Positions 1,612-36,385 of a stretch of 38,638 bases of DNA are shown here, piece after piece. The notes below the pieces were generated by a model. The model saw only the letters and a program-made list of their open reading frames with translations, was not told the origin of the DNA and did not search any database. The DNA is from Clostridium sp. CAG:1193 (GTDB taxonomy: Bacteria; Bacillota_I; Bacilli_A; RF39; UBA660), in contig HF990819.1 of the NCBI GenBank assembly GCA_000436255.1, positions 17,943 to 56,580 of the forward strand, given 5' to 3'. The position numbers and the translations under genes are program-made. Position 1 is the first letter of the stretch. Each line of letters opens with the position of its first letter.

Positions 1612-3555
1612 ATGAAGAATTTAGTAATAGTAGAATCTCCAAGTAAATCAAAAACGATTGAAAAATATTTAGGTAAAGATTATAAAGTGGTGTCGAGTAA
1701 AGGACATATTCGTGATTTAGCAACTAAAGGTAAATATGGACTTGGTGTTGATTTAGAAAATAACTTTGCACCTACTTATGAAATAATTAAAGGTAAGAAA
1801 AAAATGGTTTCTGACTTAAAAAAAGAAGTTAAAGCTGCTGATAAAATTTATCTTGCAACTGACCCCGATAGAGAAGGTGAAGCAATAAGTTGGCATTTAA
1901 AAGATGAACTTAATATAAAAGATAAAGATTATGAAAGAGTAGTATTTAATGAAATAACTAAAAATACAGTAATAGATGCTTTTAATCATGCAAGAAAAAT
2001 AGATGATGATTTAGTACGTAGTCAAGAAACAAGAAGAATATTAGATAGAATAATTGGTTTTAGATTAAGTAAATTAATGCAATCTAAAACAGGTGGTAAA
2101 AGTGCAGGTAGAGTTCAAAGTGTTGCACTTAAACTAATTGTAGATAGAGAAAATGAAATTAATAATTTTATTAAAGAAGAATACTGGGATATAACTGGTG
2201 TATTTAATGAATTTGAAGCTAATTTAGAAAAATATAAAGATGAGAAAGTAGAAATACATAATGAGGCAGAAGCAGATGAAATTTTAAGCAAATTATCAAA
2301 TGTATTTAAAATAGAAGATGTTTCTAAGAAAGAAAAAAATAAACAATCAAAGCCTCCATTTATAACTAGTACATTGCAACAAGAAGCTAGTACTAAATTG
2401 GGTTTTAATGCAAAAAAAACTATGTCAATTGCACAAAAATTATATGAAGGAATTGACTTAGGAAATGAAACAACAGGTCTTATTTCATATATGAGGACTG
2501 ATTCAATAAGATTAAGTGATGAATTTGTAAAAAGTGCATATCAGTATATAGAAAGGAATTATGGAAAAGAATATTTAGGCATTGTTAAGAAAAGCAAGAA
2601 AACAGAAAATGTTCAAGATGCTCATGAGGCAATTAGACCAACAAGTATTAACAGAACACCAGAAGTGGTTAAAGAATATCTAACTACTGATGAATATAAA
2701 TTATATAAAATGATATATTATAGAGCATTATCTTCACTTATGAAAGATGCTAAACAAGAACAAACAAGTGTTACTCTTGATAATAATAATTATAAATTTA
2801 AAGTAACAGGAAGTGTTATAGTATTTGATGGATACTTAAAAGTATATAAAGATTATGAAGATAATACAGATATTATATTACCACCATTTGATACATATAA
2901 ATCAAATGTACTTGTATCAAATAGTATAGAAAAAACACAACATTTTACAAAACCACCAGCAAGATATACAGAAGCAAAATTAATAAAAGAAATGGAAGAC
3001 TTAGGTATAGGAAGACCATCAACATATGCAAAAACGATGGAAACACTTGTTGATAGAGGTTATGTAAAAGTAATTGATAAAAAATTTAATCCAACAGAAA
3101 TAGGTATAGAAACTACTAATAAATTGCAAGAATATTTTAGTAATCTTATTAATGTTAAATATACTGCAAAAATGGAAGATGATTTAGATAAGATTGCTGA
3201 TGGAAAGATGGTATGGGTTAATTTACTTGATTCATTTTATAAAGAATTTGAACCTATGTTAGAAAATGCATTTAGCAATATGGAAAAGAAAAAAGCTGAA
3301 CAGACAGGTGAACTATGTCCAGAATGTGGTAGCCCTTTAGTAATTAGAAAAGGAAAATATGGAGAATTTACTGCGTGTTCAAACTATCCAACTTGTAAAT
3401 ACATAAAAAAAGAAGAGAAAAAAGTAGTTGAAGTATGTAAATGTCCAAAATGTGATGGAGTGGTTATTGAAAAAAAGACTAAAAGAGGCAAAATGTTTTA
3501 TGGCTGCTCAAATTATCCAAGATGCGATTATGCCACTTGGAATAAACCAGAATAA
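1612..3555 (+). CDS. topA: DNA topoisomerase I (type IA) with two C-terminal 4-Cys zinc ribbons
   Basis: Toprim start MKNLVIVESPSKSKTIEKYLG, then DPDREGEAISWH and the active-site region GLISYMRTDS. Zinc ribbons CPECG...CSNYPTCKY and CPKCD...CSNYPRCDY. Confidence 0.95.
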   Translation: MKNLVIVESPSKSKTIEKYLGKDYKVVSSKGHIRDLATKGKYGLGVDLENNFAPTYEIIKGKKKMVSDLKKEVKAADKIYLATDPDREGEAISWHLKDELNIKDKDYERVVFNEITKNTVIDAFNHARKIDDDLVRSQETRRILDRIIGFRLSKLMQSKTGGKSAGRVQSVALKLIVDRENEINNFIKEEYWDITGVFNEFEANLEKYKDEKVEIHNEAEADEILSKLSNVFKIEDVSKKEKNKQSKPPFITSTLQQEASTKLGFNAKKTMSIAQKLYEGIDLGNETTGLISYMRTDSIRLSDEFVKSAYQYIERNYGKEYLGIVKKSKKTENVQDAHEAIRPTSINRTPEVVKEYLTTDEYKLYKMIYYRALSSLMKDAKQEQTSVTLDNNNYKFKVTGSVIVFDGYLKVYKDYEDNTDIILPPFDTYKSNVLVSNSIEKTQHFTKPPARYTEAKLIKEMEDLGIGRPSTYAKTMETLVDRGYVKVIDKKFNPTEIGIETTNKLQEYFSNLINVKYTAKMEDDLDKIADGKMVWVNLLDSFYKEFEPMLENAFSNMEKKKAEQTGELCPECGSPLVIRKGKYGEFTACSNYPTCKYIKKEEKKVVEVCKCPKCDGVVIEKKTKRGKMFYGCSNYPRCDYATWNKPE

Positions 3556-3594
3556 TAATTAATTTAATAATCATAATAATAGTAGGTGATATTT

Positions 3595-4098
3595 ATGTTG
3601 TTTTTGTGCTTAAAAATATTCTTTGTAAGAATTCTTGATGTATCTTTAGGTACAGTAAGAACAATGTTTACTGTAAAAGGTAATAGAATAACCGCATCCT
3701 TAGTAGGCTTTATAGAAATTCTAGTATGGTTTTTAGTTGCAAAAGAAGCACTTCAAACAGAAGAAAAAAGTATACTTATTGCAATATCATATTCATTAGG
3801 ATTTGCAACAGGAACTTATATAGGCGGATATTTATCTAGTGTATTAATTACAGGTAATATTACAGTTCAAGTATTTACTGATAATCTTAAATTAGAACAA
3901 ATATTAAGAAAAAAAGGATATGCAGTAAGTGTAATTGAATGTAAAGGATATAATGAAAATAAAGGTAAGCATATGCTTTATATAAATATAAATAAGAAAA
4001 AAGAACAGGAACTTATGAAAATAGTTAATATAAATGATGAGCATGCATTTGTAGTGGTTAATGAAACTAAGTATGTAGAAAACGGGTATTTTAAATAA
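3595..4098 (+). CDS. UPF0316/DUF2179-family small membrane protein (B. subtilis YebE-like)
   Basis: KIFFVRILDVSLGTVRTMFTVKG, then TM segments and a C-terminal soluble domain. I prefer ATG 3595 (aggtg RBS 6 nt upstream) over the track's GTG at 3586. Confidence 0.7.
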   Translation: MLFLCLKIFFVRILDVSLGTVRTMFTVKGNRITASLVGFIEILVWFLVAKEALQTEEKSILIAISYSLGFATGTYIGGYLSSVLITGNITVQVFTDNLKLEQILRKKGYAVSVIECKGYNENKGKHMLYININKKKEQELMKIVNINDEHAFVVVNETKYVENGYFK

Positions 4099-4102
4099 GA
4101 TT

Positions 4103-4136
4103 AAAGACTATATATTTGATATATGGTCTTTTTTTT
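4103..4136 (+). terminator. Rho-independent terminator
   Basis: aaagactatata / tatatggtcttt stem with one G-U pair, followed by a T6 run. Confidence 0.7.
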
Positions 4137-4206
4137 ACGAAAATAATAACTTTTTTAAAAAATATAGGGGAGTTTTTAAAGTTATGTGGAATAAAACAAA
4201 TAGGGG

Positions 4207-6210
4207 GTGATAATATTGGCGTATAAATATGTTTATCAACATAATACCAATGATTGTGCGGTTGCATGTTTACTTTCTATAATTAGGTATTATAAAGGGA
4301 ATAATACTTATGAAAATATTCATTATTTAACACATTGTGATAATAATGGAGTAACTGCTTTAAATTTAATTAATGCAAGCAATAAGTTGGGTTTTGAAAG
4401 TAGGGGTTTAAAGGTTGAATATGCTCATTTAAAAAATTTAAAAATACCTATTATTGCACATTTAATTCTAAAGGATGGATATAATCATTATGTTGTAGTA
4501 GAAAAAATAAAAGAAAATACCATTTATATTTTTGATCCTGCAAAGGGGAAAATAAAATATAAAAAAGAAGAATTTTTAAAGTTATGGAGTAATGTAGTAA
4601 TAGAATTAAAACCTACTCGTGTATTAGATGTAATAAATGAAAAAGAGATTAACTTATTAATCGATATTATAAAAAATAACATAAGTACTTATTTAATAGT
4701 TTCCTTTGTTTCATTTTTAGCAATAATATTAACGTTAGTTTCTAATTATTACTTTAGTACACTTATTAAAAATAGTGCATTAAGTATATTAATATTTTTC
4801 TTGTTTATAACTTTTATTAAAGAAATAAATGATTATATAAGAGGATTAATAATAATTAAATTAGAAAGTAAAATAGAAAGTGATATTAATAAAACTACAC
4901 ATGAAAAATTGTTATTGCTCCCATATTATTATTTTAATAGTAGAACTACAGGTGATATTATTTCAAAGATGCAAGATTTAGATTATATTAAAGAACTTAT
5001 AATTAAAGTGCCTATCTATTTACTAATTGATATTACTCTTATGGTTTTATCTACAATTATACTTTTAAATATAAGTATTAAATTATATATAATATTTTTG
5101 TTTGTATGTTTATTATATTTTTTAGTGTTATTACTATTTGATAAAAAAATAAAAAAAATGATACGTATAAATCAAGAAAACAAAATAATAAATAATGAAA
5201 TATTAATAGAGAATATAAAATCTATAAACACGATTAAAAATTTAAATATAGAAAGTGTAAGAAATGATATATTTAATCAATCATATGATAGTTACCTTAA
5301 AGATAAAAAACGATATGAAAAAACAATTAATAAAGAATTATTCATAAGAAATTTAATAATACTTATGGGTTTAAATATTATACTTTATGTAGGCATAAAA
5401 ATAGTAGATCTTAAAGAATTAATACTTTTTGACTCAATTGCAATATATTTTTTAGAAGCCATTAAAAATATTTGTGAATTAAACCCATTATATAAGAATG
5501 CGATAAATGCGTTAAAAAGAGTCAAAGAGATATATAAAATTGATATTCCTTCCTATCAAAAATTAGAAATTGATAATTTTGATATTCATATAAATAATCT
5601 TAGTTATTCATATAATGGTTATAAAAATATTTTTAAAAACCTAAATTTAAATATATTAAGTAAAGAAAAAATTGCTGTAACAGGATTTTCTGGTTGTGGT
5701 AAAAGTACATTATTTAAATTAATAAATAAAACATATCAAATAGAAAATAACAAAATATTTATCGGGAAAACTGATATTAATAAGATAAATACAAGTGATA
5801 TAGTTTCTTATATATCACAAGAAGAAATATTATTTAAAGATACTTTATATAATAATTTAACATCATATAAAAATATTAAAAATGAGACTGTAATGAAAAT
5901 TAGTAAAATAACAGGTCTTGATAAAGTTATTAAAAGTAAAAATATGAATTTAAATAGTTTTATATTAGAAGATGGTATAAATTTTAGTAAAGGTGAAAAA
6001 CAAAAAATAATTTTGACAAGAGTTTTACTTAAAAATAATAATATATTAATATTAGATGAAGCATTAAATGCATTAGATGAAAGTGAAGAATGCAAGATAT
6101 TAAATAGAATTATAAAGTGTTATAGAAATAAAACAATTATTTATATAACACATAGGAAAAAATGTATTTCTTTATTTGATAGAGAAATAAAATTGAAAGG
6201 AGAGGTATGA
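4207..6210 (+). CDS. Bacteriocin/competence-peptide type ABC exporter with an N-terminal C39 double-glycine peptidase domain (LagD/ComA/PedD class)
   Basis: C39 motifs QHNTNDCAVACLLSII (Gln/Cys), HYVVVEKI (His) and DPAKG (Asp). A six-TM region follows. NBD has Walker A GFSGCGKST, Walker B ILILDEA and H-loop YITHR. TTG 4216 (aggggg RBS 8 nt upstream) is a plausible alternative start. Confidence 0.9.
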   Translation: MIILAYKYVYQHNTNDCAVACLLSIIRYYKGNNTYENIHYLTHCDNNGVTALNLINASNKLGFESRGLKVEYAHLKNLKIPIIAHLILKDGYNHYVVVEKIKENTIYIFDPAKGKIKYKKEEFLKLWSNVVIELKPTRVLDVINEKEINLLIDIIKNNISTYLIVSFVSFLAIILTLVSNYYFSTLIKNSALSILIFFLFITFIKEINDYIRGLIIIKLESKIESDINKTTHEKLLLLPYYYFNSRTTGDIISKMQDLDYIKELIIKVPIYLLIDITLMVLSTIILLNISIKLYIIFLFVCLLYFLVLLLFDKKIKKMIRINQENKIINNEILIENIKSINTIKNLNIESVRNDIFNQSYDSYLKDKKRYEKTINKELFIRNLIILMGLNIILYVGIKIVDLKELILFDSIAIYFLEAIKNICELNPLYKNAINALKRVKEIYKIDIPSYQKLEIDNFDIHINNLSYSYNGYKNIFKNLNLNILSKEKIAVTGFSGCGKSTLFKLINKTYQIENNKIFIGKTDINKINTSDIVSYISQEEILFKDTLYNNLTSYKNIKNETVMKISKITGLDKVIKSKNMNLNSFILEDGINFSKGEKQKIILTRVLLKNNNILILDEALNALDESEECKILNRIIKCYRNKTIIYITHRKKCISLFDREIKLKGEV

Positions 6211-6347
6211 AAGAATTAAACAATATTGAATTAAATAATATAAGTGGTGGTTTTAAATGGATAATAGGAGGTGTGATTGGTGGTATTTTAGCATTTATTG
6301 TAGGAGTATTAGATGGTTTTACAAGGCCATTAAAATGTAATAGTTAA
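6207..6347 (+). CDS. Double-glycine-leader peptide 1 (46 aa): MKELNNIELNNISGG / FKWIIGGVIGGILAFIVGVLDGFTRPLKCNS
   Basis: The ATG overlaps the exporter stop (ATGA). RBS aaaggagagg. The leader matches the ELxxIxGG consensus. The mature part is hydrophobic with GxxxG repeats. It is below the ORF-track size cutoff. Confidence 0.8.
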   Translation: MKELNNIELNNISGGFKWIIGGVIGGILAFIVGVLDGFTRPLKCNS

Positions 6348-6349
6348 TT

Positions 6350-6469
6350 ATGAGAGAGTTAAAAATAAATGAATTAAATAGTATAAGTGGTGGATGCATA
6401 ATATCACGCTATATATATAAGTTTATTATAAAAACATTCCGATTATTTTTTAAACCGACATTTATGTAA
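6350..6469 (+). CDS. Double-glycine-leader peptide 2 (39 aa): MRELKINELNSISGG / CIISRYIYKFIIKTFRLFFKPTFM
   Basis: It starts 2 nt after the peptide-1 stop, which suggests translational coupling; there is no SD of its own. The leader is nearly identical in pattern to peptide 1. The mature part is cationic and aromatic. Confidence 0.7.
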   Translation: MRELKINELNSISGGCIISRYIYKFIIKTFRLFFKPTFM

Positions 6470-6479
6470 AGGAGGAATT

Positions 6480-6635
6480 ATGGAACTTAATAAAAAAGAA
6501 TTAAATGATATTATTGGAGGTAGTATTTCTGGAAGTATTATATCGAGTATAGTAAGGGGTGGAATACTTATATTAGAACTTGGTAGAAGTTTTGGAAGTG
6601 CATTAAGAAGATTACTAAAGAAAAAATATTGCTAA
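6480..6635 (+). CDS. Double-glycine-leader peptide 3 (51 aa): MELNKKELNDIIGG / SISGSIISSIVRGGILILELGRSFGSALRRLLKKKYC
   Basis: Strong RBS aaggagg 5 nt upstream. Leader ELNDIIGG. The mature part is amphipathic and strongly cationic at the C-terminus. Confidence 0.8.
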   Translation: MELNKKELNDIIGGSISGSIISSIVRGGILILELGRSFGSALRRLLKKKYC

Positions 6636-6641
6636 ATAAAA

Positions 6642-6680
6642 ATTCTCAGCTAAGTATGCTTAGTTGAGAATTTATATTTT
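6642..6680 (+). terminator. Rho-independent terminator closing the exporter-peptide operon
   Basis: 13-bp stem attctcagctaag / cttagttgagaat (one G-U), loop tatg, then a T-rich tail. Confidence 0.8.
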
Positions 6681-6710
6681 ATATGGTATTATATATATGG
6701 ATGTGATGAT

Positions 6711-6953
6711 ATGAATACTGATAAATTAAAGATAATAGTTAATGGAAAGACTATAGAATATGATATTGTAAAAATATTATTACCAACTAATGCAAAATAT
6801 AAATATATAGTATATAAAGATAATAAAGAAAATCTCTATTCATCTAGATTTGATGTTGATAATAATAATAATATTATCCTTTCAGATCTTAAGTATAAAT
6901 ATGAATTTGATTATGTAAATAGAATATTAAATGGTGATAACAATGAAAAATAA
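6711..6953 (+). CDS. Small soluble protein, DUF1292-like
   Basis: The pattern KIIVNGKTIEYDIV...KYKYIVYKDNKENLYSSRF...EFDYVNRIL resembles the two clear DUF1292 genes at 28042 and 30543. No TM segment is present. Confidence 0.45.
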   Translation: MNTDKLKIIVNGKTIEYDIVKILLPTNAKYKYIVYKDNKENLYSSRFDVDNNNNIILSDLKYKYEFDYVNRILNGDNNEK

Positions 6954-8223
6954 AAAAGTAAAAAATAATTGGTTTATTAGTATGTCTTCATGGCAAAAAG
7001 CTTTATTTGCAACTATAGTATCAGTAGATATTTTAGCTACAGGAGTAGCAGGACACCTTATATATGATTTATCAAAAGATAAAGAAAATAAAGAAGATAA
7101 TATAGATACTAAAGAAAGTATTGTTACATATGCACCAATTACAGAAGAAATGATTGAACTTCAAGTAACTGATCGTGATGAGTTAATGGAAGAGTATGAG
7201 TTAATAAATTCTAGTTTTTCTAAAGATACAAGTTGTTATAATTATGCTTTAGCATCTTCACCGGTATTTCCAATTAAAAATGTATGTACTAGTAGTGATA
7301 TTATGATGGAAGTATTTACTAAAAACTTAGATACTCCTTGTTTTCTTGATAACTTAAATATAGATGAAGTAGAATTTTATGAAGAACAAAAATCAAAAAT
7401 AATTGAAGAAGTAATAAAAGAGTATGATGCATATTTTCCTTTAAGTGAATCATCATACATTCCAGAAGAATTTTATAAAACGTGTGAAAAACATACATAT
7501 TTAGGAAATAGCCCAATAGAAGAAACTATAGTTATTGATAAAACAGAAGTAGATGATTCCATTTTAAATAAAGTATTAAATAATCAAGAATTAATGAGTA
7601 GTATTAATGAATGTAGTACAAAGTATAAAATCGATAAAAGCTTGCTTATTGCAGTTGCAACAGTTAATCTTGAAGTAAATGGAGAAGATGCTTTTCTTAA
7701 TAATCCAATGGGAATTGGTTTTCCATTAAAAGGCTTTAATTCGTGGATAGAACAATTTGATGAAAACGATAATTATACAAGTTTAAAAGATACTATATAT
7801 GGTGAGCAATTAACGAGATTTAAAAAAGAGTGTGAAAGTAATGGAATTATGGGTAATGTAGAGTTTGGTGCGATGATTATGCAGCATTGCCTTGATAATC
7901 CAGTTGAAGATTCTACTTTACTTCATAGTGTGTATTTATATTTTGATTATAAAAGTAATCCAGATAAAGCCCAGGCATTAACAAATAAAGCATTAAATTA
8001 TATGTTTAGATTAGCTAATGATAGTGAGATTAAATTACAATATTATATGCCTGTTGATGAACGTAATACAACTACACCATTAAATGAAAGATTTGCATAT
8101 AGAGTAGAGACTATAGTATCATCTGATATAAAAGAATACTTAGGGAATATGTATGATATGTATGCAAGAGTAACATATAATATGGCAAAAGAAAATACTA
8201 AAAATATGGTTGTTATAAAATAA
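6943..8223 (+). CDS. N-terminally membrane-anchored extracytoplasmic protein with a possible divergent GH73-type (glucosaminidase-like) motif
   Basis: TM segment WQKALFATIVSVDILATGVAGHLIY. The motif LLIAVATVNLEVNG-x6-NNPMGIG resembles the GH73 pattern AQAxLESGWG...NNxFGIK. ATG 6943 (ggtga RBS) is preferred over 6931. It overlaps the previous gene by 11 nt. Confidence 0.55.
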   Translation: MKNKKVKNNWFISMSSWQKALFATIVSVDILATGVAGHLIYDLSKDKENKEDNIDTKESIVTYAPITEEMIELQVTDRDELMEEYELINSSFSKDTSCYNYALASSPVFPIKNVCTSSDIMMEVFTKNLDTPCFLDNLNIDEVEFYEEQKSKIIEEVIKEYDAYFPLSESSYIPEEFYKTCEKHTYLGNSPIEETIVIDKTEVDDSILNKVLNNQELMSSINECSTKYKIDKSLLIAVATVNLEVNGEDAFLNNPMGIGFPLKGFNSWIEQFDENDNYTSLKDTIYGEQLTRFKKECESNGIMGNVEFGAMIMQHCLDNPVEDSTLLHSVYLYFDYKSNPDKAQALTNKALNYMFRLANDSEIKLQYYMPVDERNTTTPLNERFAYRVETIVSSDIKEYLGNMYDMYARVTYNMAKENTKNMVVIK

Positions 8224-8251
8224 AAAAAGAAAAAATTAATTTTCTTTTTTT
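8222..8251. terminator. Possible weak bidirectional hairpin between convergent genes
   Basis: aaaaaaagaaaa / ttttcttttttt inverted repeat, almost entirely A-T, so stability is low. Confidence 0.35.
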
Positions 8252-9684
8252 TATAAATCTAATACTTGAGTATCATCAAGAGATGGAGGTTTAATAATAG
8301 TTTGAACATTATTTACAGGTTCATTACTAACTGATGGGGTATCAGATTTGAATAAACTTTTCTCAGTTACAGGTGAATAAATTTTAGCACTATTTTTTAC
8401 ATCGTTAACATTAAGTTGACTAGTTTTAGATAATTCAGTTTGCTCAATTGCATTATGTAAGTCATACTTATATGCACTTGATGCATTTTTATCATCAGCA
8501 ACATCATCAAGTTCGATTAATTTAATTATTTCTTCAAAAGTGGTATATCCATTTATTACTTTTTCAAGACCATCTTGAAGTAGAGTATTAACATCAGTAT
8601 TGTATACTAAATTACGAAGTTCATCTTTAGGCATATTATTAGAAATTGCATCTCTTATTTCTTGGGTAATTAATAATACTTCATGAATTGCAATACGACC
8701 TCTATAACCACTTCCACATTCAGGACATCCAACTGCAGAATATATTTCATTTATTTCCATACCAAATACTTTTCTAAATATTTCTTTTTCATAACTATTA
8801 GTTGGTCTTTTTTTCTTACATTTATCACATAATTTTCTTGCTAGTTTCTGTGAAATTATTCCTTCAAGAGCACTTGCAAGTAAGTATCTTTCAACTTCCA
8901 TATCAAGTAAACGTTCAATTGTATTAAGTGAGTTATTAGTATGTATTGTTGATAATACTAAGTGACCAGTAATAGATGCTCTAACTGCTATTTTTGCTGT
9001 TTCATTATCACGAATTTCTCCGATCATTACTATATCTGGGTCTTGTCTTAATACAGAACGCAATACATTAGCAAATGTTAAACCAATTTCACTATTAACT
9101 TGAACTTGGTTAATTCCTTTTATATTCATTTCTATCGGATCTTCAACCGTAATAAGGTTAGTTTCAGTTCTATTTAATTTTTGTAAAATAGAGTATACAG
9201 TAGTAGATTTACCACTACCAGTCGCACCTGTAACTAATATTATACCAGAAGGTATATTTATAAGTTTTGAAATCTTTTTAAAGTTTCTTTCACTAAATCC
9301 TAAGTATTCAATACCTTTTAAACTCATCGAATAATCAAGAATACGAATAACTATTTTTTCACCTTCATTAGTTGGCAAAGAAGAAACACGGAGATCCAAA
9401 TTTTCTTCTTTAATAGTAGTTTTAATCGCACCGTCTTGTGGTAATCTTACTTCAGTAATATTCATACCAGACATAATTTTAATACGTGTAATCAAATTTT
9501 TCTTAAGAGTGTTTGGTATAGTTGTATAATCTGATAATAATCCGTCAATACGAATTCTAACTTTCATTTCATCTTCTTCAGGGTCAAAGTGAATATCACT
9601 AGCACCCCTTTTAGAAGCATCATAAAGTATTTCATTTACTACTTCAACTATAGGCAACTTCTCATAATCAAAAGTTTTAATCAT
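8251..9684 (-). CDS. pilB: GspE/PilB-family type IV pilus / type II secretion-like assembly ATPase (ComGA-like short form) with a C-terminal extension of about 83 aa
   Basis: ASDIHFDP, Walker A VTGATGSGKSTT, Asp/His boxes (IRDNETAKIAVRASITGHLVLSTIHTN) and a tetracysteine motif CDKCKKK...CPECGSGYRGR. RBS gggagg. Confidence 0.85.
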   Translation of the reverse strand: MIKTFDYEKLPIVEVVNEILYDASKRGASDIHFDPEEDEMKVRIRIDGLLSDYTTIPNTLKKNLITRIKIMSGMNITEVRLPQDGAIKTTIKEENLDLRVSSLPTNEGEKIVIRILDYSMSLKGIEYLGFSERNFKKISKLINIPSGIILVTGATGSGKSTTVYSILQKLNRTETNLITVEDPIEMNIKGINQVQVNSEIGLTFANVLRSVLRQDPDIVMIGEIRDNETAKIAVRASITGHLVLSTIHTNNSLNTIERLLDMEVERYLLASALEGIISQKLARKLCDKCKKKRPTNSYEKEIFRKVFGMEINEIYSAVGCPECGSGYRGRIAIHEVLLITQEIRDAISNNMPKDELRNLVYNTDVNTLLQDGLEKVINGYTTFEEIIKLIELDDVADDKNASSAYKYDLHNAIEQTELSKTSQLNVNDVKNSAKIYSPVTEKSLFKSDTPSVSNEPVNNVQTIIKPPSLDDTQVLDL

Positions 9685-9787: not shown

Positions 9788-12700
9788 ATGATGAAAAAAA
9801 AGAGAAATGGTTTCTTTTTGTCAGAAACAATGATAGTAATGACAGTCGTTGCAGTTGTTATATTAGGAGTATTTAAAGTATTCTCAAGTGTTTACACAAG
9901 ATATAAAGAAAGTGAGAACTATAATACAATAAATTCAATAAATGCTCTTTCAATATTAAACCAATACTATGACTCATATGATATTAATATATTAACTATA
10001 TTAAATGGAAATTATTATGTTGATTTAACTAACTTAGATACATATGAAAGTGAACATTATGACAATTTAAAAAGTACACTTAATGTAGATAAGGTGTATT
10101 TATTTGATGGAACTAAGTTATTTAGTGGAGAGAATATATATAATTTTGATCTAAATACAAGAAAGTACTTAAAAACATTAAGTAAGAAAAATTATGATAC
10201 TATGCTTGTAGTAAAACTAAAAAGTGAAGAGTATGCTAGTGTAGAAGTAAAAGGTAATGAAATAGTTACTTTAGTAGGAGACTCTAACGATGAATTTGTA
10301 ACGTATGTAGAGTTAAATACTGAGTTTTTTGATCCAGGATATATTAACTGGATTGGTGATAAACCTAAAATAACAGGATCAGTAGATACTACGAAAGAAG
10401 GAACATATTATTTAACATATGACTTTAATGGATATTTATTAAGAAGAAAAGTAATAGTAACAAAAGCTGTTTATAACTATGATTACACAGGTGGTGCTCA
10501 AACATTTACTGCACCATCTTCAGGATATTATAAATTAGAAACTTGGGGTGCTCAAGGTGGAACATCTTTAAATAATAATGTTCTTACAACACCAGGTGGA
10601 TATGGGGGATATAGTAAAGGAGTAGTTTATTTAAAAAAAGGTGAAACTGTATACATATATGTTGGTGGAAAAGGTCAAGATGGTACAAAAGGTAAAAATG
10701 CTACAGGGGGATATAATGGTGGTGGAAGTGGAACATGGGATACCACTGATGATGAAAGTGGTGGTGCAGGAGGAGGAGCCACACATATTGCAAAAGCATC
10801 AGGATTATTGTCATCATTAGAAAGTAACAAATCATCAATTTTAATAGTAGCTGGTGCAGGAGGAGGCTCTAGTTGGACATATGAAGTTGGACATGGTGGG
10901 GGCTTTACAGGAGTAGTGACTAAAACTACTAATCAATCAGTAGCAAATCAAGTAATGGGTTATGCATTTGGAAAAGGCCAAAATGCAACTGGTGTAGGTG
11001 CTAATGATGGAGTTGGTGGAGGAGGCGCTGGATATTATGGTGGATATTCAAACGATGTAAAAAACAAATCTGCCGGTGCTGGTGGTTCAGGGTACATTGG
11101 AAATGATTTATTAACAAATAAAGCAATGTATTGTTATGGGTGTGTAAATTCTACATCCCCAGATACATATACAGTATCAACTACAAATGTATCTGATACT
11201 GCAATCGAAAACTATGCTAAAAAAGGAAATGGTTATGCAAGAATAACACTTGCATATAAAGAAGAAAGTGAAGATGCTAAAACTTATAATTATACAGGTA
11301 ATGTTCAAACATATACAGTTCCTAAAACAGGTTGGTATAGAATAGAAGCATGGGGTGCAGCCGGTAATAACAATTATAGTGATTATGTAAAAACTTTAAT
11401 ACCAACAAAAGGTGGTTATACAAAAGGAGAAATTTACTTAACAAAAGATGAAAAACTTTATGTGTATGTTGGAGGTATAAGAGAAACATTTAACTGTTGT
11501 ACACAACAATCTGGTGTTGGTTCTGGTGGCGCTACTGACATAAGGCTAGTTAGTGGGGATTGGAATAATGCTGATTCATTAAGAAGTAGAATAATGGTTG
11601 CTGGTGGAGCTGGTGGCTCTTACCTTGATCCAAGTGCTCCAAGAGGCGGAAGTGCTGGTGGACTTATATCTGAAAATGTAATTTTAAGTTATGAAACAAC
11701 ACATCTTGCAGGGCCTACTACACAAACATCTAGTGGAGCTGCTGGTACTAGTGGATCAGTTGGTGGATTTGGATATGCCGGTACTGTAACAAATATAGCA
11801 TATAGCCCAGGTGGTGGTGGCTACTATGGTGGAAGTGGAGCAGCAGCAAGTGCAGGTGGTTCATCATTTATATCTGGATATGCTGGTGTTAATGCAATAG
11901 ATTCATCAGGAAATCACACAAATGATACAAAACACTATAGTGGTAAATACTTTATTAATGGAGAAATGCAAGCAGGAGTTAATTTAGAATCTGGTAAAGC
12001 AAGAATAACATATATAGGTGAAAATAAATCAACCAGAAATACGAAACTAGATAATGTAAGATATATAAAAGATTGTGTTTCAGGTAACCAAACTGATAGT
12101 ACAAATAGATGGAATGAAATACAAGCAATATATAATGGTAGCAACATTGCAAAAGGAAAAACTGCTACTATGGTAAGTGGTACTTTATCACTACCTGCAA
12201 AAATAACTGATGGAGATATAGGAAAATATGCTACAGGGAATGATTCATATAGTACTGGTAACTGTGTATTAATAGATTTAGGACAAAGCTATAATCTTGA
12301 TGAAGTTGCTGTATGGCGTAATTATGAAACAATATTTAATGCTACTAAAAATACAGTTACATCAGTATCAAGTGATAATACTAACTGGACTACTATAATA
12401 ACAGATAGTAAAATAGAAACTCCAGAAGGTAAAAGAATGACGGCATATTATTACGATAATGAACAAAATAATATATTAACTAATTATACTTTTAGTGATT
12501 ATACAAAAGTAGACTGGCCTTGGGATAAAACTTTAAATAGAAGTTTAGGAATTGTCCCTACAAATTGGTCTAGTTATAATAGTGGAGTAGAAGAACCTGA
12601 AAAAGGATATCATGCGAGATTTGATAATAGTCCATTTGGTTATAATATGGTGGTATTTCCTAATTTAAATTCATCTATAAATCAAACTGGAAGATGGATG

Positions 12701-13033
12701 GGTATATATATAAATAGCATTAATGCGAATGTAATAAAAGCAAATGCGACTTATGAAGTAGTTATGGATATTTATCCAACAATAAAAGAATTTACTGTAA
12801 CAGGTGGTATATGGCATAGTAATAAGAATACTCAAACTTATGAATTTTCTAGTGCATTCTTTACAATTGCCACATCAAAAGAAAATATAAATAAATGGAT
12901 AACTGTAAGAAGAGTAATTACAACACCTACAACTTTAAATGAATCTGCAGGAACTAATTTATTTATTTATGGTAATGCTGGAAAAGAAGGAACAGCATAC
13001 GTAAGAAATATAAAACTTAGAAGAGTGAGTTAA
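9788..13033 (+). CDS. Giant modular type IV pilin-like protein (1081 aa): prepilin signal, Ig-like module, two glycine-rich (ALK/LTK-type) domains, discoidin-like module and a C-terminal beta-sandwich-like module
   Basis: N-terminus MMKKKRNG|FFLSETMIVMTVVAVVILGVF gives Gly at -1, Phe at +1 and Glu at +5, followed by about 20 hydrophobic residues. Downstream modules are listed separately. Confidence 0.85.
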   Translation: MMKKKRNGFFLSETMIVMTVVAVVILGVFKVFSSVYTRYKESENYNTINSINALSILNQYYDSYDINILTILNGNYYVDLTNLDTYESEHYDNLKSTLNVDKVYLFDGTKLFSGENIYNFDLNTRKYLKTLSKKNYDTMLVVKLKSEEYASVEVKGNEIVTLVGDSNDEFVTYVELNTEFFDPGYINWIGDKPKITGSVDTTKEGTYYLTYDFNGYLLRRKVIVTKAVYNYDYTGGAQTFTAPSSGYYKLETWGAQGGTSLNNNVLTTPGGYGGYSKGVVYLKKGETVYIYVGGKGQDGTKGKNATGGYNGGGSGTWDTTDDESGGAGGGATHIAKASGLLSSLESNKSSILIVAGAGGGSSWTYEVGHGGGFTGVVTKTTNQSVANQVMGYAFGKGQNATGVGANDGVGGGGAGYYGGYSNDVKNKSAGAGGSGYIGNDLLTNKAMYCYGCVNSTSPDTYTVSTTNVSDTAIENYAKKGNGYARITLAYKEESEDAKTYNYTGNVQTYTVPKTGWYRIEAWGAAGNNNYSDYVKTLIPTKGGYTKGEIYLTKDEKLYVYVGGIRETFNCCTQQSGVGSGGATDIRLVSGDWNNADSLRSRIMVAGGAGGSYLDPSAPRGGSAGGLISENVILSYETTHLAGPTTQTSSGAAGTSGSVGGFGYAGTVTNIAYSPGGGGYYGGSGAAASAGGSSFISGYAGVNAIDSSGNHTNDTKHYSGKYFINGEMQAGVNLESGKARITYIGENKSTRNTKLDNVRYIKDCVSGNQTDSTNRWNEIQAIYNGSNIAKGKTATMVSGTLSLPAKITDGDIGKYATGNDSYSTGNCVLIDLGQSYNLDEVAVWRNYETIFNATKNTVTSVSSDNTNWTTIITDSKIETPEGKRMTAYYYDNEQNNILTNYTFSDYTKVDWPWDKTLNRSLGIVPTNWSSYNSGVEEPEKGYHARFDNSPFGYNMVVFPNLNSSINQTGRWMGIYINSINANVIKANATYEVVMDIYPTIKEFTVTGGIWHSNKNTQTYEFSSAFFTIATSKENINKWITVRRVITTPTTLNESAGTNLFIYGNAGKEGTAYVRNIKLRRVS
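10253..10471 (+). other. Ig-like module (DUF5011-like pattern) inside the giant pilin
   Basis: VTLVGD..FVTYVELNTEFFDPGY....ITGSVDTTKEGTYYLTY..........KVIV. The same pattern occurs at 17128-17352. Confidence 0.55.
10472..11257 (+). other. Glycine-rich domain copy 1 (Pfam Gly_rich / ALK-LTK glycine-rich-domain-like)
   Basis: YNYDYTGGAQTFTAPSSGYYKLETWGAQGG...PGGYGGYSKGVVYLKKGETVYIYVGGKG...GGYNGGGSG...GGAGGGATHI...ILIVAGAGGGS...GNGYARITLAY. Confidence 0.65.
11279..12019 (+). other. Glycine-rich domain copy 2
   Basis: KTYNYTGNVQTYTVPKTGWYRIEAWGAAG...KGGYTKGEIYLTKDEKLYVYVGG...GSGGATDIRL...RIMVAGGAGGS...PGGGGYYGGSG...SGKARITYIG. It is collinear with copy 1. Confidence 0.65.
12041..12410 (+). other. 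Discoidin / F5-8 type C-like (galactose-binding-like) module
   Basis: RWNEIQAI...ITDGDIGKYATGN...CVLIDLGQSYNLDEVAVWRNYE...SSDNTNWTTI. Confidence 0.5.
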
Positions 13034-18443: not shown

Positions 18444-19271
18444 ATGAGTAGTATAGAAGAATATACAGAAAAAACTTTTGAAAGTATAAAACATATTGAT
18501 GAATTTGAAAATGAATTTTGGGAGGCAAGAGAATTAATGCCTTTACTAGAATATAGTAAATGGGAAAATTTTCATAAAGTTATAGTACGTGCAATGATTG
18601 CATGTGAAACTAGTAATAATAAAGTAAGCGACCATTTTCCTGAGTTCAGGAAAATGGTTGATATAGGTTCAAAGACAAAAAGAGAAACAATTGATTATCA
18701 TTTATCTAGGTATGCTTGTTATTTAATAGTGCAAAATGCAAATCCTAGAAAAAAATCAGTAGCGCTTGGACAAACATATTTTGCAATACAAACAAGGAAA
18801 CAGGAAATTACTGAATCAGAATATTCAAGATTAACTGAAGATGAAAAGAGATTATATACTAGAATTCTTGTTAATAATAAGAATAAATATTTATTTAAAA
18901 CTGCTAGAGAATCTGGAGTAGAAAATTTTGGTAAATTTAATAATTGTGGATATAAAGGGCTTTATAATGGAGAAACAGCTAAACAAATAGCAAAACGTAA
19001 AAATATAAAAGAAGATGAAGATATTCTTGATTATATGGGTAGTGAGGAATTAGGTGCAAATTTATTCCGTATTACACAAACAGAAGCCAAACTAAAAAAA
19101 GATAATATAGGTAATGAAGATGATGCTTGTTTAACTCACTATAATGTAGGTAAAACAGTTAGAAGGGCAATTGAAGAACTTGGTGGTAATATGCCGGAAA
19201 CTTTGCCAACTCCAGAAAAATTTATAAAAGTATTAGAAAAAGATGAATTACAAAAAATTGAAAACAATTAA
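18444..19271 (+). CDS. dinD: DNA-damage-inducible protein D (DinD) family protein
   Basis: FESIKHIDEFENEFWEARELMPLLEYSKWENFHKVIVRAMIACETS...SDHF matches the conserved DinD-family N-terminal pattern as I remember it. Length is about 275 aa. RBS gggagg. Confidence 0.75.
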   Translation: MSSIEEYTEKTFESIKHIDEFENEFWEARELMPLLEYSKWENFHKVIVRAMIACETSNNKVSDHFPEFRKMVDIGSKTKRETIDYHLSRYACYLIVQNANPRKKSVALGQTYFAIQTRKQEITESEYSRLTEDEKRLYTRILVNNKNKYLFKTARESGVENFGKFNNCGYKGLYNGETAKQIAKRKNIKEDEDILDYMGSEELGANLFRITQTEAKLKKDNIGNEDDACLTHYNVGKTVRRAIEELGGNMPETLPTPEKFIKVLEKDELQKIENN

Positions 19272-19520: not shown

Positions 19521-19740
19521 ACATGTATCTACTTTGAAGAAAAGGTTTTATTAAGCGAATTTAAAGAGAGTTAGTGGTTGGTGTAAACTAATAATTTGAT
19601 AATAAAATGTAGTTTCTGAGTATTATTACTGAGTTAAGTAAGTAATAACGTTATCTGCGTTAAAGAATAAAGTGCATAGAATCTATGAACTAAGGTGGTA
19701 CCGTTCTTATGAACCCTTAGATTATGGGTTCTTTTATTTT
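19521..19740 (+). promoter_or_regulatory. T-box riboswitch leader (tRNA-sensing transcription attenuator), probably valine-specific
   Basis: Stem I AGAGAG element at 19565-19570. Conserved T-box sequence aactaaGGTGGTACCG at 19688-19703. Terminator gaaccc/gggttc at 19711-19731 plus a T-run. valS lies downstream. Candidate specifier codons are GUA or GUU at 19609-19614; I have not folded this. Confidence 0.8.
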
Positions 19741-28742: not shown

Positions 28743-29417
28743 ATGAGATCAAGAATGGATAGGTATTATAAAGATGAAGAAATGTTACAAAGAACTTCTA
28801 GAAATGATTTATTATATGAAGAATTATATAAAGAAAAACAAGAACCTACCAGCAATATAACAGTTCTTGACAACATTAATGAAATAGATATATCAAAAAT
28901 AAAAGAAATAGTTAGTGATAGAGAAAACTATAGAAAACTTAGAAATTATGAAGATCTTGTCGATAAAAGAGAAAAACCAAAAAAAGAAGTAACGCCAGTT
29001 GAATTTGAAATGATTGATGAAAGTAAGTATGATATTAATAGAATACTTGAGAAAAAAAGAAATGACAAAAACGAGGACGATAAGGTAAGAAAAATAGGTA
29101 ATGCAGAGTATAATGCACTTACAGAATTAAGTAAAGTAGATTTTTCTAATCAAGATGATAATTTAAAAGATTTAATGGATACAATAACTATGAAAACAAG
29201 TACGGTAACTGATTTATTTGCAAATTTAAAAGAAACACAAGAAATAGAAAAAACGGATACAACATTCTATACTAAAAGTGATTCATTTGATAAAGAAGAC
29301 TTTGATGAATCGGTTAAAGAAAAAGAAAAGAGTAGTAATACTACACTTATAATAATAATTATATTAGTAATATTAATTGCAATAGCAGTATTTGTATGGT
29401 TTAAGTTCTTTAAATAA
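28743..29417 (+). CDS. Hypothetical protein with a charged N-terminal region and a C-terminal TM anchor
   Basis: ATG 28743 (aggtga RBS) is preferred over 28728. C-terminal TLIIIIILVILIAIAVFVWF. Confidence 0.5.
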   Translation: MRSRMDRYYKDEEMLQRTSRNDLLYEELYKEKQEPTSNITVLDNINEIDISKIKEIVSDRENYRKLRNYEDLVDKREKPKKEVTPVEFEMIDESKYDINRILEKKRNDKNEDDKVRKIGNAEYNALTELSKVDFSNQDDNLKDLMDTITMKTSTVTDLFANLKETQEIEKTDTTFYTKSDSFDKEDFDESVKEKEKSSNTTLIIIIILVILIAIAVFVWFKFFK

Positions 29418-29453: not shown

Positions 29454-30164
29454 ATGAAAAAGAAAATATTTGTAATAACATTAATACTAATTATAGTATT
29501 AAGTTTAATGAGTTTAAATTTTTTAAATAAGAAAGTATCTCCAGTATTATTTAGCTATGCACAAAGTGAGACAAAAAGATTATCTGCAATAATAATAAAT
29601 AAAGCAATTAATAAGCAACTTGCAAATGGAATAGATTTAGAAAAGTTATTTCAAATAGTTAAAAATACGGATGGAGAAATACAAACAATTGATTTTAATC
29701 CTCTTGTAGTAAATAAAATATTAAACACAACTACAAATGTAGTTTTAGTTAATTTAAAAGCAGTTGAAGAAGGAAATATAAATTTTGTTGAACTTCCAGA
29801 TATTCTTATTAATAGTAAAAACTTACAAAAAGGAATCATATATGAATTACCTATATTTGTATCTACAAATAATTTATTACTTTCAAATTTAGGGCCTAAA
29901 ATACCAATAAAACTTAATGTAATCGGTAGTGTAGAAAGTAATATTAAAACAAATATAAAAGAATATGGGATAAATAATGCTTTAATCGAAGTATTTGTTG
30001 AAATAACTGTAAGTGAGATGGTAAATGTACCATTTATTTCAAACAAAGTAAAAGTAACATCATCTATACCAATCGCATTTAAGGTAATACAAGGTAAAGT
30101 TCCTAGATATTATGGTGGAAATTTATCGAAAGAATCAAATATATTATCTATACCAATTGAATAA
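29454..30164 (+). CDS. yunB: Sporulation protein YunB-like
   Basis: N-terminal TM segment, length about 236 aa, and the general YunB pattern (AIIINKAINKQL...IQTIDFNP..VNKIL). Called from memory of the family, not from a search. Confidence 0.5.
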   Translation: MKKKIFVITLILIIVLSLMSLNFLNKKVSPVLFSYAQSETKRLSAIIINKAINKQLANGIDLEKLFQIVKNTDGEIQTIDFNPLVVNKILNTTTNVVLVNLKAVEEGNINFVELPDILINSKNLQKGIIYELPIFVSTNNLLLSNLGPKIPIKLNVIGSVESNIKTNIKEYGINNALIEVFVEITVSEMVNVPFISNKVKVTSSIPIAFKVIQGKVPRYYGGNLSKESNILSIPIE

Positions 30165-36032: not shown

Positions 36033-36115
36033 ACTAAGTGTTACCAATTCTTAGTGATTAGATTCTCCAACTTTCACTCAGAATATGGCGGAAATTAATA
36101 TAAGGAGGAAATAAA

Positions 36116-36385
36116 ATGGCTTTAACTAAAGAAGAAAAAGCTAAAATTGTTAGAGAATTTGGGCAAAGTGAAAATGATACAGGTTCAATGGAAGTTCAAA
36201 TAGCAATTTTAACTAAAGAAATCGAGGATTTAACTCGTCACTTAGAAGTTCATAAGCATGACTATCATTCAAAAAGAGGTTTACTTATGAAAGTTGGACA
36301 AAGACGTAATAAGTTAAATTACTTAATGAAAAACGATGTTACAAAATATCGTGAAATAGTTAGAAAATTAGGATTAAGAAAGTAG
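36116..36385 (+). CDS. rpsO: 30S ribosomal protein S15
   Basis: GDTGS-like [14 protein letters not shown]...[16 protein letters not shown]. RBS aaggagg. Confidence 0.95.

Follow-up and report, generated by a model that had tools for sequence, protein, structure and literature searches.

A probable class IIb-type two-peptide bacteriocin operon in Clostridium sp. CAG:1193, with a species-specific third leader peptide

In a stretch of 38,638 nucleotides from the human-gut metagenome-assembled genome Clostridium sp. CAG:1193 (contig HF990819.1; hereafter the window), the gene of a peptidase-containing ATP-binding cassette (ABC) transporter (PCAT; 4207-6210, + strand) is followed on the same strand by three short open reading frames (ORFs) that begin with double-glycine (GG) leaders: peptide 1 (6207-6347, 46 aa), ORF2 (6350-6469, 39 aa) and peptide 3 (6480-6635, 51 aa). 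We consider it probable that peptides 1 and 3 form a two-peptide bacteriocin of the class IIb type with its own PCAT, and that ORF2 is a recently added cargo. An earlier reading of this DNA (the original prediction) had described three packed genes closed by a terminator, with the first ATG overlapping the exporter stop codon. Reading of the sequence together with the ORF listing confirmed the arrangement, with gaps of 2 nt between peptide 1 and ORF2 and of 10 nt between ORF2 and peptide 3, and the overlap is an ATGA in which the ATG of peptide 1 (6207-6209) shares bases with the TGA of the exporter (6208-6210). The further proposal of a three-peptide, multi-component bacteriocin is not supported, because the conserved unit, as judged from related loci, is the pair of peptides 1 and 3.

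Homologues of the exporter that are 48-58% identical to it were used to find syntenic loci in other species (L020-L023 and L025-L027), where the gene order is a DUF5698/DUF2179 gene, the C39-ABC exporter, a gene of 44-49 aa (family A, to which peptide 1 belongs), a gene of 50-52 aa (family B, with peptide 3), a terminator and a convergent T2SSE ATPase gene. Each of these loci holds exactly two GG-leader genes, about 9 nt apart, and the gap contains a Shine-Dalgarno sequence. The junction of stop codon, Shine-Dalgarno sequence and ATG that precedes peptide 3 in the window is the same junction that links A to B in the related species. A metagenome scan with the conserved B block, taken from a five-sequence alignment subset, added further lineages, and in about 14 lineages A is followed directly by B at a distance of -8 to +30 nt with no middle gene, beside exporters 48-58% identical or less. 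The cores are conserved as much as the exporter, with 39-65% identity to the window peptide for A and 35-65% for B. Judged from sequence comparison, the A/B pair has been passed down vertically within a lineage of uncultured Bacilli with small genomes. Of the three genes in the original prediction, the two that stand in syntenic relatives are A and B, both kept with their GG leaders; ORF2 is absent from all related species.

The family A core follows the consensus ..IGG.ITFIIGIIDG..RPLKCN, in which GxxxG is invariant and the cysteine nearly so (alignments A1 and A6, the latter of 102 sequences). Among the cluster representatives of this family, all 114 carry GxxxG and 108 of 114 have exactly one core cysteine, placed 1-2 residues from the end. 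A profile search for family A gathered 289 clusters, all of them from uncultured Bacilli, and some members already bear the name 'class IIb bacteriocin, lactobin A/cerein 7B family' (P0266 and P0276; PGAP or IMG). The corresponding model, TIGR03949, is matched by peptide 1 and by 8 of 9 sampled family A members, with scores in the window of 19.9 bits for peptide 1, 13.6 for peptide 3 and 12.5 for ORF2, all below the cutoff of 21.5. Family A resembles this family in its GG leader followed by a Gly-rich hydrophobic segment, whereas the conserved DGF-RP-KC tail is specific to family A and the model is silent on a B partner. Family B has the consensus ..SG....S..RG...ILELGRS.GS.IRR......C, with invariant GxxxG, Arg and C-terminal Cys (alignment A2). 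A homologue search with peptide 3 as a single sequence returned its own species and one relative at 63%, and the family became visible only through the loci anchored on the exporter. When families A and B were compared, their likeness was confined to the leader.

In this species, peptide 1 consists of the leader MKELNNIELNNISGG (6207-6251) and the core FKWIIGGVIGGILAFIVGVLDGFTRPLKCNS (6252-6344), a hydrophobic helix of 31 aa with a net charge of +2 that carries GxxxG at G33xxxG37 and its cysteine at C44. AlphaFold2 predicts a helix over residues 14-39 (predicted local distance difference test, pLDDT, 82) and then a non-helical RPLKCNS tail. Peptide 3 consists of the leader MELNKKELNDIIGG (6480-6521) and the core SISGSIISSIVRGGILILELGRSFGSALRRLLKKKYC (6522-6632), an amphipathic helix of 37 aa with a net charge of +6 and a maximum hydrophobic moment of 0.75; it has GxxxG at G35xxxG39, followed by R43 and the C-terminal C51, and is predicted as one long helix over residues 5-50 (pLDDT 80). 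The class IIb-like GxxxG that the original prediction had seen in peptide 1 is upheld, but it had assigned the motif to peptide 1 alone and had missed the conserved G35xxxG39 of peptide 3. It had also called all three genes unannotated, which is true of ORF2, never called by any annotation, but not of the other two: peptide 1 is deposited as CCY44822.1 and MEF2689932.1 and peptide 3 as CCY44823.1 and MEF2689931.1, and both are found on about 440 contigs; in IMG they bear the name 'bacteriocin-like protein'. Among the deposited sequences of peptide 3, rare variants (P0164 and P0165) have a frameshift near the C-terminus with readthrough into the terminator (...NKNSQLSMLS) and lose the terminal Cys; they could reflect errors of assembly or true null alleles.

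All three leaders (15 aa in peptide 1 and ORF2, 14 aa in peptide 3) have Gly-Gly at -2/-1, Ile at -4, Leu at -7, Glu at -8 and Leu at -12, which bears out the earlier claim of a double-glycine consensus with hydrophobic residues at -4 and -7. A six-frame scan of the window for the GG-leader pattern returned these three ORFs and one antisense artefact (28766-28876), and in Markov-simulated sequence of the same composition such an ORF is expected about 0.46 times per 38.6-kb window. The trio is real and not a result of chance. The TIGR01847 double-glycine signal model scores peptide 1 and peptide 3 at 15.5 bits and ORF2 at 16.3 against a cutoff of 15.7, so that two of the three miss it by 0.2.

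The exporter ORF spans 667 aa, and gene callers start it at TTG 4216 (664 aa). It comprises a C39 peptidase, a six-helix ABC membrane domain and an ATPase (Pfam Peptidase_C39, 2e-37; ABC_membrane, 9e-20; ABC_tran, 3e-21) and aligns end to end with PCAT1 of Clostridium thermocellum (PDB 4RY2; E 8e-79) and with ComA of Streptococcus (8HF4; E ~7e-69). Because Q11, C17, H94 and D110 align to the catalytic Gln, Cys, His and Asp of PCAT1, its C39 is, by homology, a genuine protease and differs from the C39-like domains that lack the Cys. The ATPase keeps Walker A, Walker B and the H-loop. The exporter thus shares with PCAT1 and ComA the order of C39, transmembrane and nucleotide-binding domains and the catalytic set, but it is about 60 residues shorter and has the signature FSKGE in place of LSGGQ/LSEGQ; the full motif (5974-5994, residues ~590-596) reads FSKGEKQ where PCAT1 has LSEGQKQ and the canonical form is LSGGQ. 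Its score against TIGR01193 (bacteriocin_ABC), 318.1 bits, lies below the cutoff of 523.85 and marks a divergent member of the superfamily, and in NCBIfam it is also similar to the Mycoplasma-type Mbov_0121 peptidase-ABC family. A scan of GTDB genomes with the exporter gave generic ABC transporters at about 25% identity and no orthologous loci. The full-length alignment to PCAT1 and the retained catalytic residues support the claim that the GG-leader peptides are cargoes of the adjacent exporter.

Class IIb bacteriocins are defined by a double-glycine leader of 15-30 residues with a dedicated ABC transporter that has a peptidase domain, by GxxxG (or AxxxA/SxxxS) in both peptides with a mainly helical structure, and by an immunity gene that is always co-operonic, an accessory protein being usual (PMC2850506). 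Like lactococcin G, plantaricin EF/JK and enterocin 1071, the A/B operons encode two different peptides with GG leaders and a dedicated C39-ABC exporter, the window leaders of 15, 15 and 14 aa (taking the predicted cleavage sites) lying at the short end of the range. The cores would likewise be unmodified and, as predicted, helical, with GxxxG in both and one peptide more hydrophobic, the other more cationic. The two genes are adjacent in the relatives, whereas in the window A and B share the operon but are split by the 120-nt ORF2. The similarity of the cores to characterised class IIb members is below curated thresholds. By homology to PCAT1 and ComA, the C39 domain would bind the amphipathic leader through Ile -4, Leu -7 and Leu -12 and cut after Gly-Gly, and the ABC core would then export the core peptide. 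Peptide 1 (hydrophobic, +2) and peptide 3 (amphipathic, +6) would be the two halves of the bacteriocin, and by analogy to lactococcin G and the plantaricins their helices may pack against each other in the target membrane by way of the invariant GxxxG motifs and make it leak. No modification enzymes (LanB/C/M, radical SAM and others) were found in Pfam scans of every sizeable ORF of the 38.6-kb window, and the peptides are therefore probably of the unmodified class II type, as had been proposed. If the pair is active, it represents a family of short, unmodified and chemically synthesisable antimicrobial peptides from gut bacteria not yet cultured, and its targets would probably be close relatives in the same niche.

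The cysteines set the pair apart from class IIb: each of the three cores in the window has exactly one, and this single residue near the C-terminus is nearly invariant in family A and invariant in family B, whereas to our knowledge class IIb peptides have no Cys or an even number. The lone cysteine of A and B could act as a free thiol needed for activity or could join the two peptides in an A-S-S-B bridge. Lactococcin B is a thiol-activated class II bacteriocin in which the reduced state of a single Cys matters for activity; A and B resemble it in the lone Cys, but they have no sequence similarity to it and lactococcin B is a one-peptide bacteriocin. Such a need for a free thiol would be the alternative to a bridge, above all in the reducing gut. 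Our literature search found no two-peptide bacteriocin with an intermolecular disulfide, and nothing on CAG:1193.

ORF2 differs from its neighbours in origin. Its leader MRELKINELNSISGG (6350-6394) is about 87% identical in DNA to the leader of peptide 1 (score 58; maximum of shuffled sequences 33), and the likeness ends at the GG codons. The core CIISRYIYKFIIKTFRLFFKPTFM (6395-6466) is an amphipathic stretch of 24 aa with a net charge of +5 and a hydrophobic moment of 0.69. An exhaustive HMMER search of 1.84 billion representatives gave no homologue of this core, tblastn and blastn searches for its source in the masked window and 299 kb of related loci gave matches at chance level only, and a PHROGs search of ORF2 gave nothing meaningful. 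The ORF2 sequence is absent from a collection of 15 billion proteins, and gene callers leave a gap there in every strain locus. A 962-aa protein (P0168) that had come up as a match was rejected as a composition artefact of a repetitive protein. By these comparisons ORF2 is a species-specific insertion, restricted to CAG:1193, in which a core without relatives follows a copied leader; the leader of peptide 1 would have been duplicated, joined to the 24-aa cationic core and placed between A and B.

Peptide 1 is preceded by the Shine-Dalgarno sequence GGAGAGG (6199-6205, inside the 3' end of the exporter gene) and peptide 3 by AGGAGG (6470-6475), both on the + strand by direct reading. Unlike them, ORF2 has no Shine-Dalgarno sequence: the DNA upstream reads ...AATAGTTAATT-ATG, and its start lies 2 nt after the stop codon of peptide 1. 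Its translation would therefore probably depend on coupling to peptide 1, in which case it would leave the cell through the same pump as an extra cargo. The missing ribosome-binding site fits another account as well, in which ORF2 is a non-functional by-product of a partial leader duplication, open for 39 codons by chance, and the operon is simply a two-peptide one. That no gene caller ever predicted ORF2, that its core is without homologue and that relatives have no such ORF speak for this account too, and in strains that are only 1-2% diverged an intact frame is weak evidence of function. The 2-nt gap, however, permits termination-reinitiation coupling, and a complete consensus GG leader is kept. 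None of the 21 strains has a broken frame, and all 3 polymorphisms of the core fall at third positions without changing the amino acid, an outcome expected of 19% of random substitutions (P ~0.007); the sole amino-acid change among the strains, S11N, falls in the leader and makes it match that of peptide 1. We regard the by-product account as unlikely, while giving it real weight, and prefer ORF2 as a recent cargo. If so, leader-bearing peptide genes without a ribosome-binding site of their own systematically escape standard gene callers.

A natural recombinant bears on the same point. In L028, a single Logan contig out of more than 400, a 143-bp deletion (window 6252-6394) with its crossover within the shared TATAAGTGGTGG (6239-6250 and 6382-6393) fuses the leader of peptide 1 in frame to the ORF2 core (P0167; L028 5001-5120). 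The core of peptide 1 is lost, and the ORF2 core is kept and gains the ribosome-binding site of peptide 1, which again argues against a mere by-product. P0167 was rejected as an independent homologue of ORF2, since it comes from the same locus by the deletion that swapped the leaders. Within one species, the cargoes of these exporters would thus be reshuffled by duplication of leaders and by recombination between them. A third GG-leader gene is found in another species as well, after B (L037 3669-3806, also L039-L045 and L051; MSNEELMSVHGG|RLSITISYSYNSVMGYLYTLGRRIGTYFNRLFH); it was gained independently and looks like a Cys-less paralogue of B, so the gain of extra cargo recurs in the A/B family.

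These additional cargoes could also be taken to mean that the window encodes an obligate three-component bacteriocin, or that ORF2 serves as an alternative partner for peptide 3. All three peptides share the operon, the exporter, matching leaders and one Cys per core, the gain after B happened independently, and L028 retains the ORF2 core and peptide 3 without the core of peptide 1. Yet the A+B pair suffices in about 13 other lineages, the ORF2 core has no GxxxG motif, and L028 is one contig among more than 400, so that we find a three-component system very unlikely. We give equally little credence to ORF2 as a secreted pheromone that autoinduces the operon, with peptides 1 and 3 as effectors. 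Its short (24 aa), cationic and amphipathic core behind a GG leader has the size and character of ComC, BlpC, plantaricin A and EntF, and the BlpC model gives a weak match. That match, at 15.4 bits (E 0.012), is far under the cutoff of 70, and the ComC Pfam model gave none. Pheromone genes normally precede kinase genes, whereas ORF2 lies between two structural genes. Pfam scans found no histidine kinase, response regulator or LytTR gene in the 38.6 kb, no LytTR-type direct repeats were found upstream of the operon, and related species run the same operon with no such peptide. With no kinase, response regulator or LytTR-type repeat found in the window, the idea that one of the three might be a signalling peptide has no local support. 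The reading of peptides 1 and 3 as a bacteriocin pair, with ORF2 as an added cargo, is the one that we retain.

Several observations weigh against that reading. There is no immunity gene in or beside the operon, since the window has no small transmembrane (TM) ORF and the terminator comes right after peptide 3 (the 80-aa gene downstream has no TM segment), and there is no accessory gene, an HlyD/LcnD-type protein being absent from the Pfam scans of the window; class IIb operons have both or at least the former. Against the models of specific bacteriocin families, peptides 1 and 3 always score slightly less than the curated cutoff. The locus keeps its synteny from species to species and seems to belong to the core, and bacteriocin loci do not usually behave in this way. 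ORF2 lacks a ribosome-binding site, and the sign of selection on it comes from three polymorphisms only. An intermolecular A-B disulfide is doubtful in a strict anaerobe of the reducing gut.

Distant operons (L024, L034, L037, L038, L046 and L050) carry more genes than that of the window. A single-TM protein of about 148 aa lies between exporter and A (L034 2220-2669, L037 2909-3361, L038 2901-3332, L050 2768-3214, L024 638-1093) and may be a short accessory protein. A leaderless protein of 49-61 aa lies after B (L024 1398-1568, L034 2981-3145, L046 3644-3793, L050 3549-3734); a TM helix lies at its N-terminus, and the final ~25 residues are similar to the C-terminal part of B, with GxxxG, Arg and terminal Cys, a likeness supported by hmmsearch and hhalign (P 3.5e-5, probability 72%). 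As it occupies the position usual for a class IIb immunity gene, this small protein is a reasonable candidate for immunity, perhaps as a membrane-anchored mimic of B. Pfam searches with both proteins and with the extra peptide of the related operons gave nothing meaningful. Hidden Markov models of the two proteins matched nothing in the window except peptide 3 itself, and the CAG:1193 clade would therefore run a minimal version of exporter, A and B.

The absence of an immunity gene in this clade is one of the points that favour a different role for the pair, namely that A and B are not antimicrobial but a lineage-core secreted or membrane-inserted pair, for signalling, envelope or host interaction, that uses bacteriocin-type export. 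Synteny and vertical conservation across exporters only ~50% identical, cores under strong purifying selection and producers with very small genomes (a contig of 1.13-1.14 Mb) are in keeping with such a role, and we know of no biological role for the cargo of PCAT1 itself. Set against it, A and B show every testable class IIb sequence feature apart from the immunity and accessory genes, and distant relatives carry the small B-tailed membrane protein where an immunity gene usually lies. We hold a non-antimicrobial pair to be improbable. At a similar, low level of belief, the bacteriocin reading can be extended: A and B might be a new two-peptide subtype ancestral to the lineage of uncultured small-genome Bacilli, acting as a Cys-linked heterodimer or a thiol-dependent pair, whose ancestral leaderless B-mimic immunity was lost by the CAG:1193 clade and in which ORF2 is a newborn peptide, its leader copied onto non-coding or unrelated sequence. 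Systems of this type are familiar, and a bacteriocin-like label is already attached to two of the three genes; what is new is the conserved A/B family, B being without a curated model, the lone invariant Cys, the minimal operon and the never-annotated ORF2.

The exporter, the three cargo ORFs and the terminator make up one unit on the + strand (4207-6683), which is self-contained in view of the hairpins on either side. Upstream, a hairpin with a T-run on the + strand (4103-4139; inverted repeat 4103-4115/4119-4131, 92% complementary, followed by TTTTTTTT) is the predicted end of the DUF5698/DUF2179 gene and sets the 5' boundary of the transcription unit. Downstream, an intrinsic terminator on the + strand (6640-6683) with a 15-bp stem, a 4-nt loop (hairpin 6640-6673) and a T-rich tail closes the operon; this hairpin was the sole terminator-like site returned by a scan of 3400-8400 and is present in both the minimum free energy and the centroid folds. 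Its stem is preserved between strains, since variation is confined to the loop bases 6655-6656. Apart from the terminator, folding of the peptide region gave no notable structure inside ORF2. The only repeat upstream is a single 15-nt direct repeat, 36 nt apart, that includes the ribosome-binding site of the exporter.

The best sigma-70-like match of the region, TTGACA-18-AATAAT (11/12; 6013-6042), is located within the 3' end of the exporter gene, some 165 nt ahead of peptide 1, and the peptide genes could have their own promoter there; promoter-like sites are no commoner in the region than in shuffles, which limits this site to a lead. Another such site, TTGAGA-17-TATTAT with an upstream TG (6664-6692), overlaps the operon terminator.

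By Pfam content the window holds housekeeping, pilus-type and surface-protein genes, and the neighbours of the operon include topA, the DUF2179 gene, the T2SSE ATPase gene and tRNA synthetase genes. Between the operon terminator and the T2SSE gene lie the 80-aa gene and a gene of 430 aa with an N-terminal TM segment and no family match in Pfam, NCBIfam or PHROGs (6711-8223); PHROGs gave nothing meaningful for the 80-aa gene either, and both occur in this species only, with nothing at the same place in related species. Next to the convergent T2SSE ATPase gene (8251-9684), a 1081-aa protein (9788-13033) has a prepilin-like N-terminus (KRNGFFLSETMIV...) and two ALK/LTK glycine-rich domains. Between strains about 12% of sites vary in the first 560 nt of its gene, compared with about 2% elsewhere, and strains and related species have versions of 507 to 1086 aa.

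Further from the operon, an ORF at 41-577 encodes tandem type I dockerin repeats (Pfam Dockerin_1, 3e-32) in a genome of about 1.1 Mb, with no cohesin seen in the window. A BRO-N domain protein (18444-19271; phrog_8036, 1e-89) is probably phage-derived, and a BRO-N gene is also present near the locus in L020. Two RNA leaders were recognised, a T-box (19525-19721, 100 bits) upstream of an HD-domain gene and a class I tRNA synthetase gene, and a ribosomal S15 leader (36042-36172, 45 bits) upstream of the rpsO/pnp region. A Spore_YunB domain protein (29454-30164) hints that sporulation genes may be kept in this small-genome gut bacterium.

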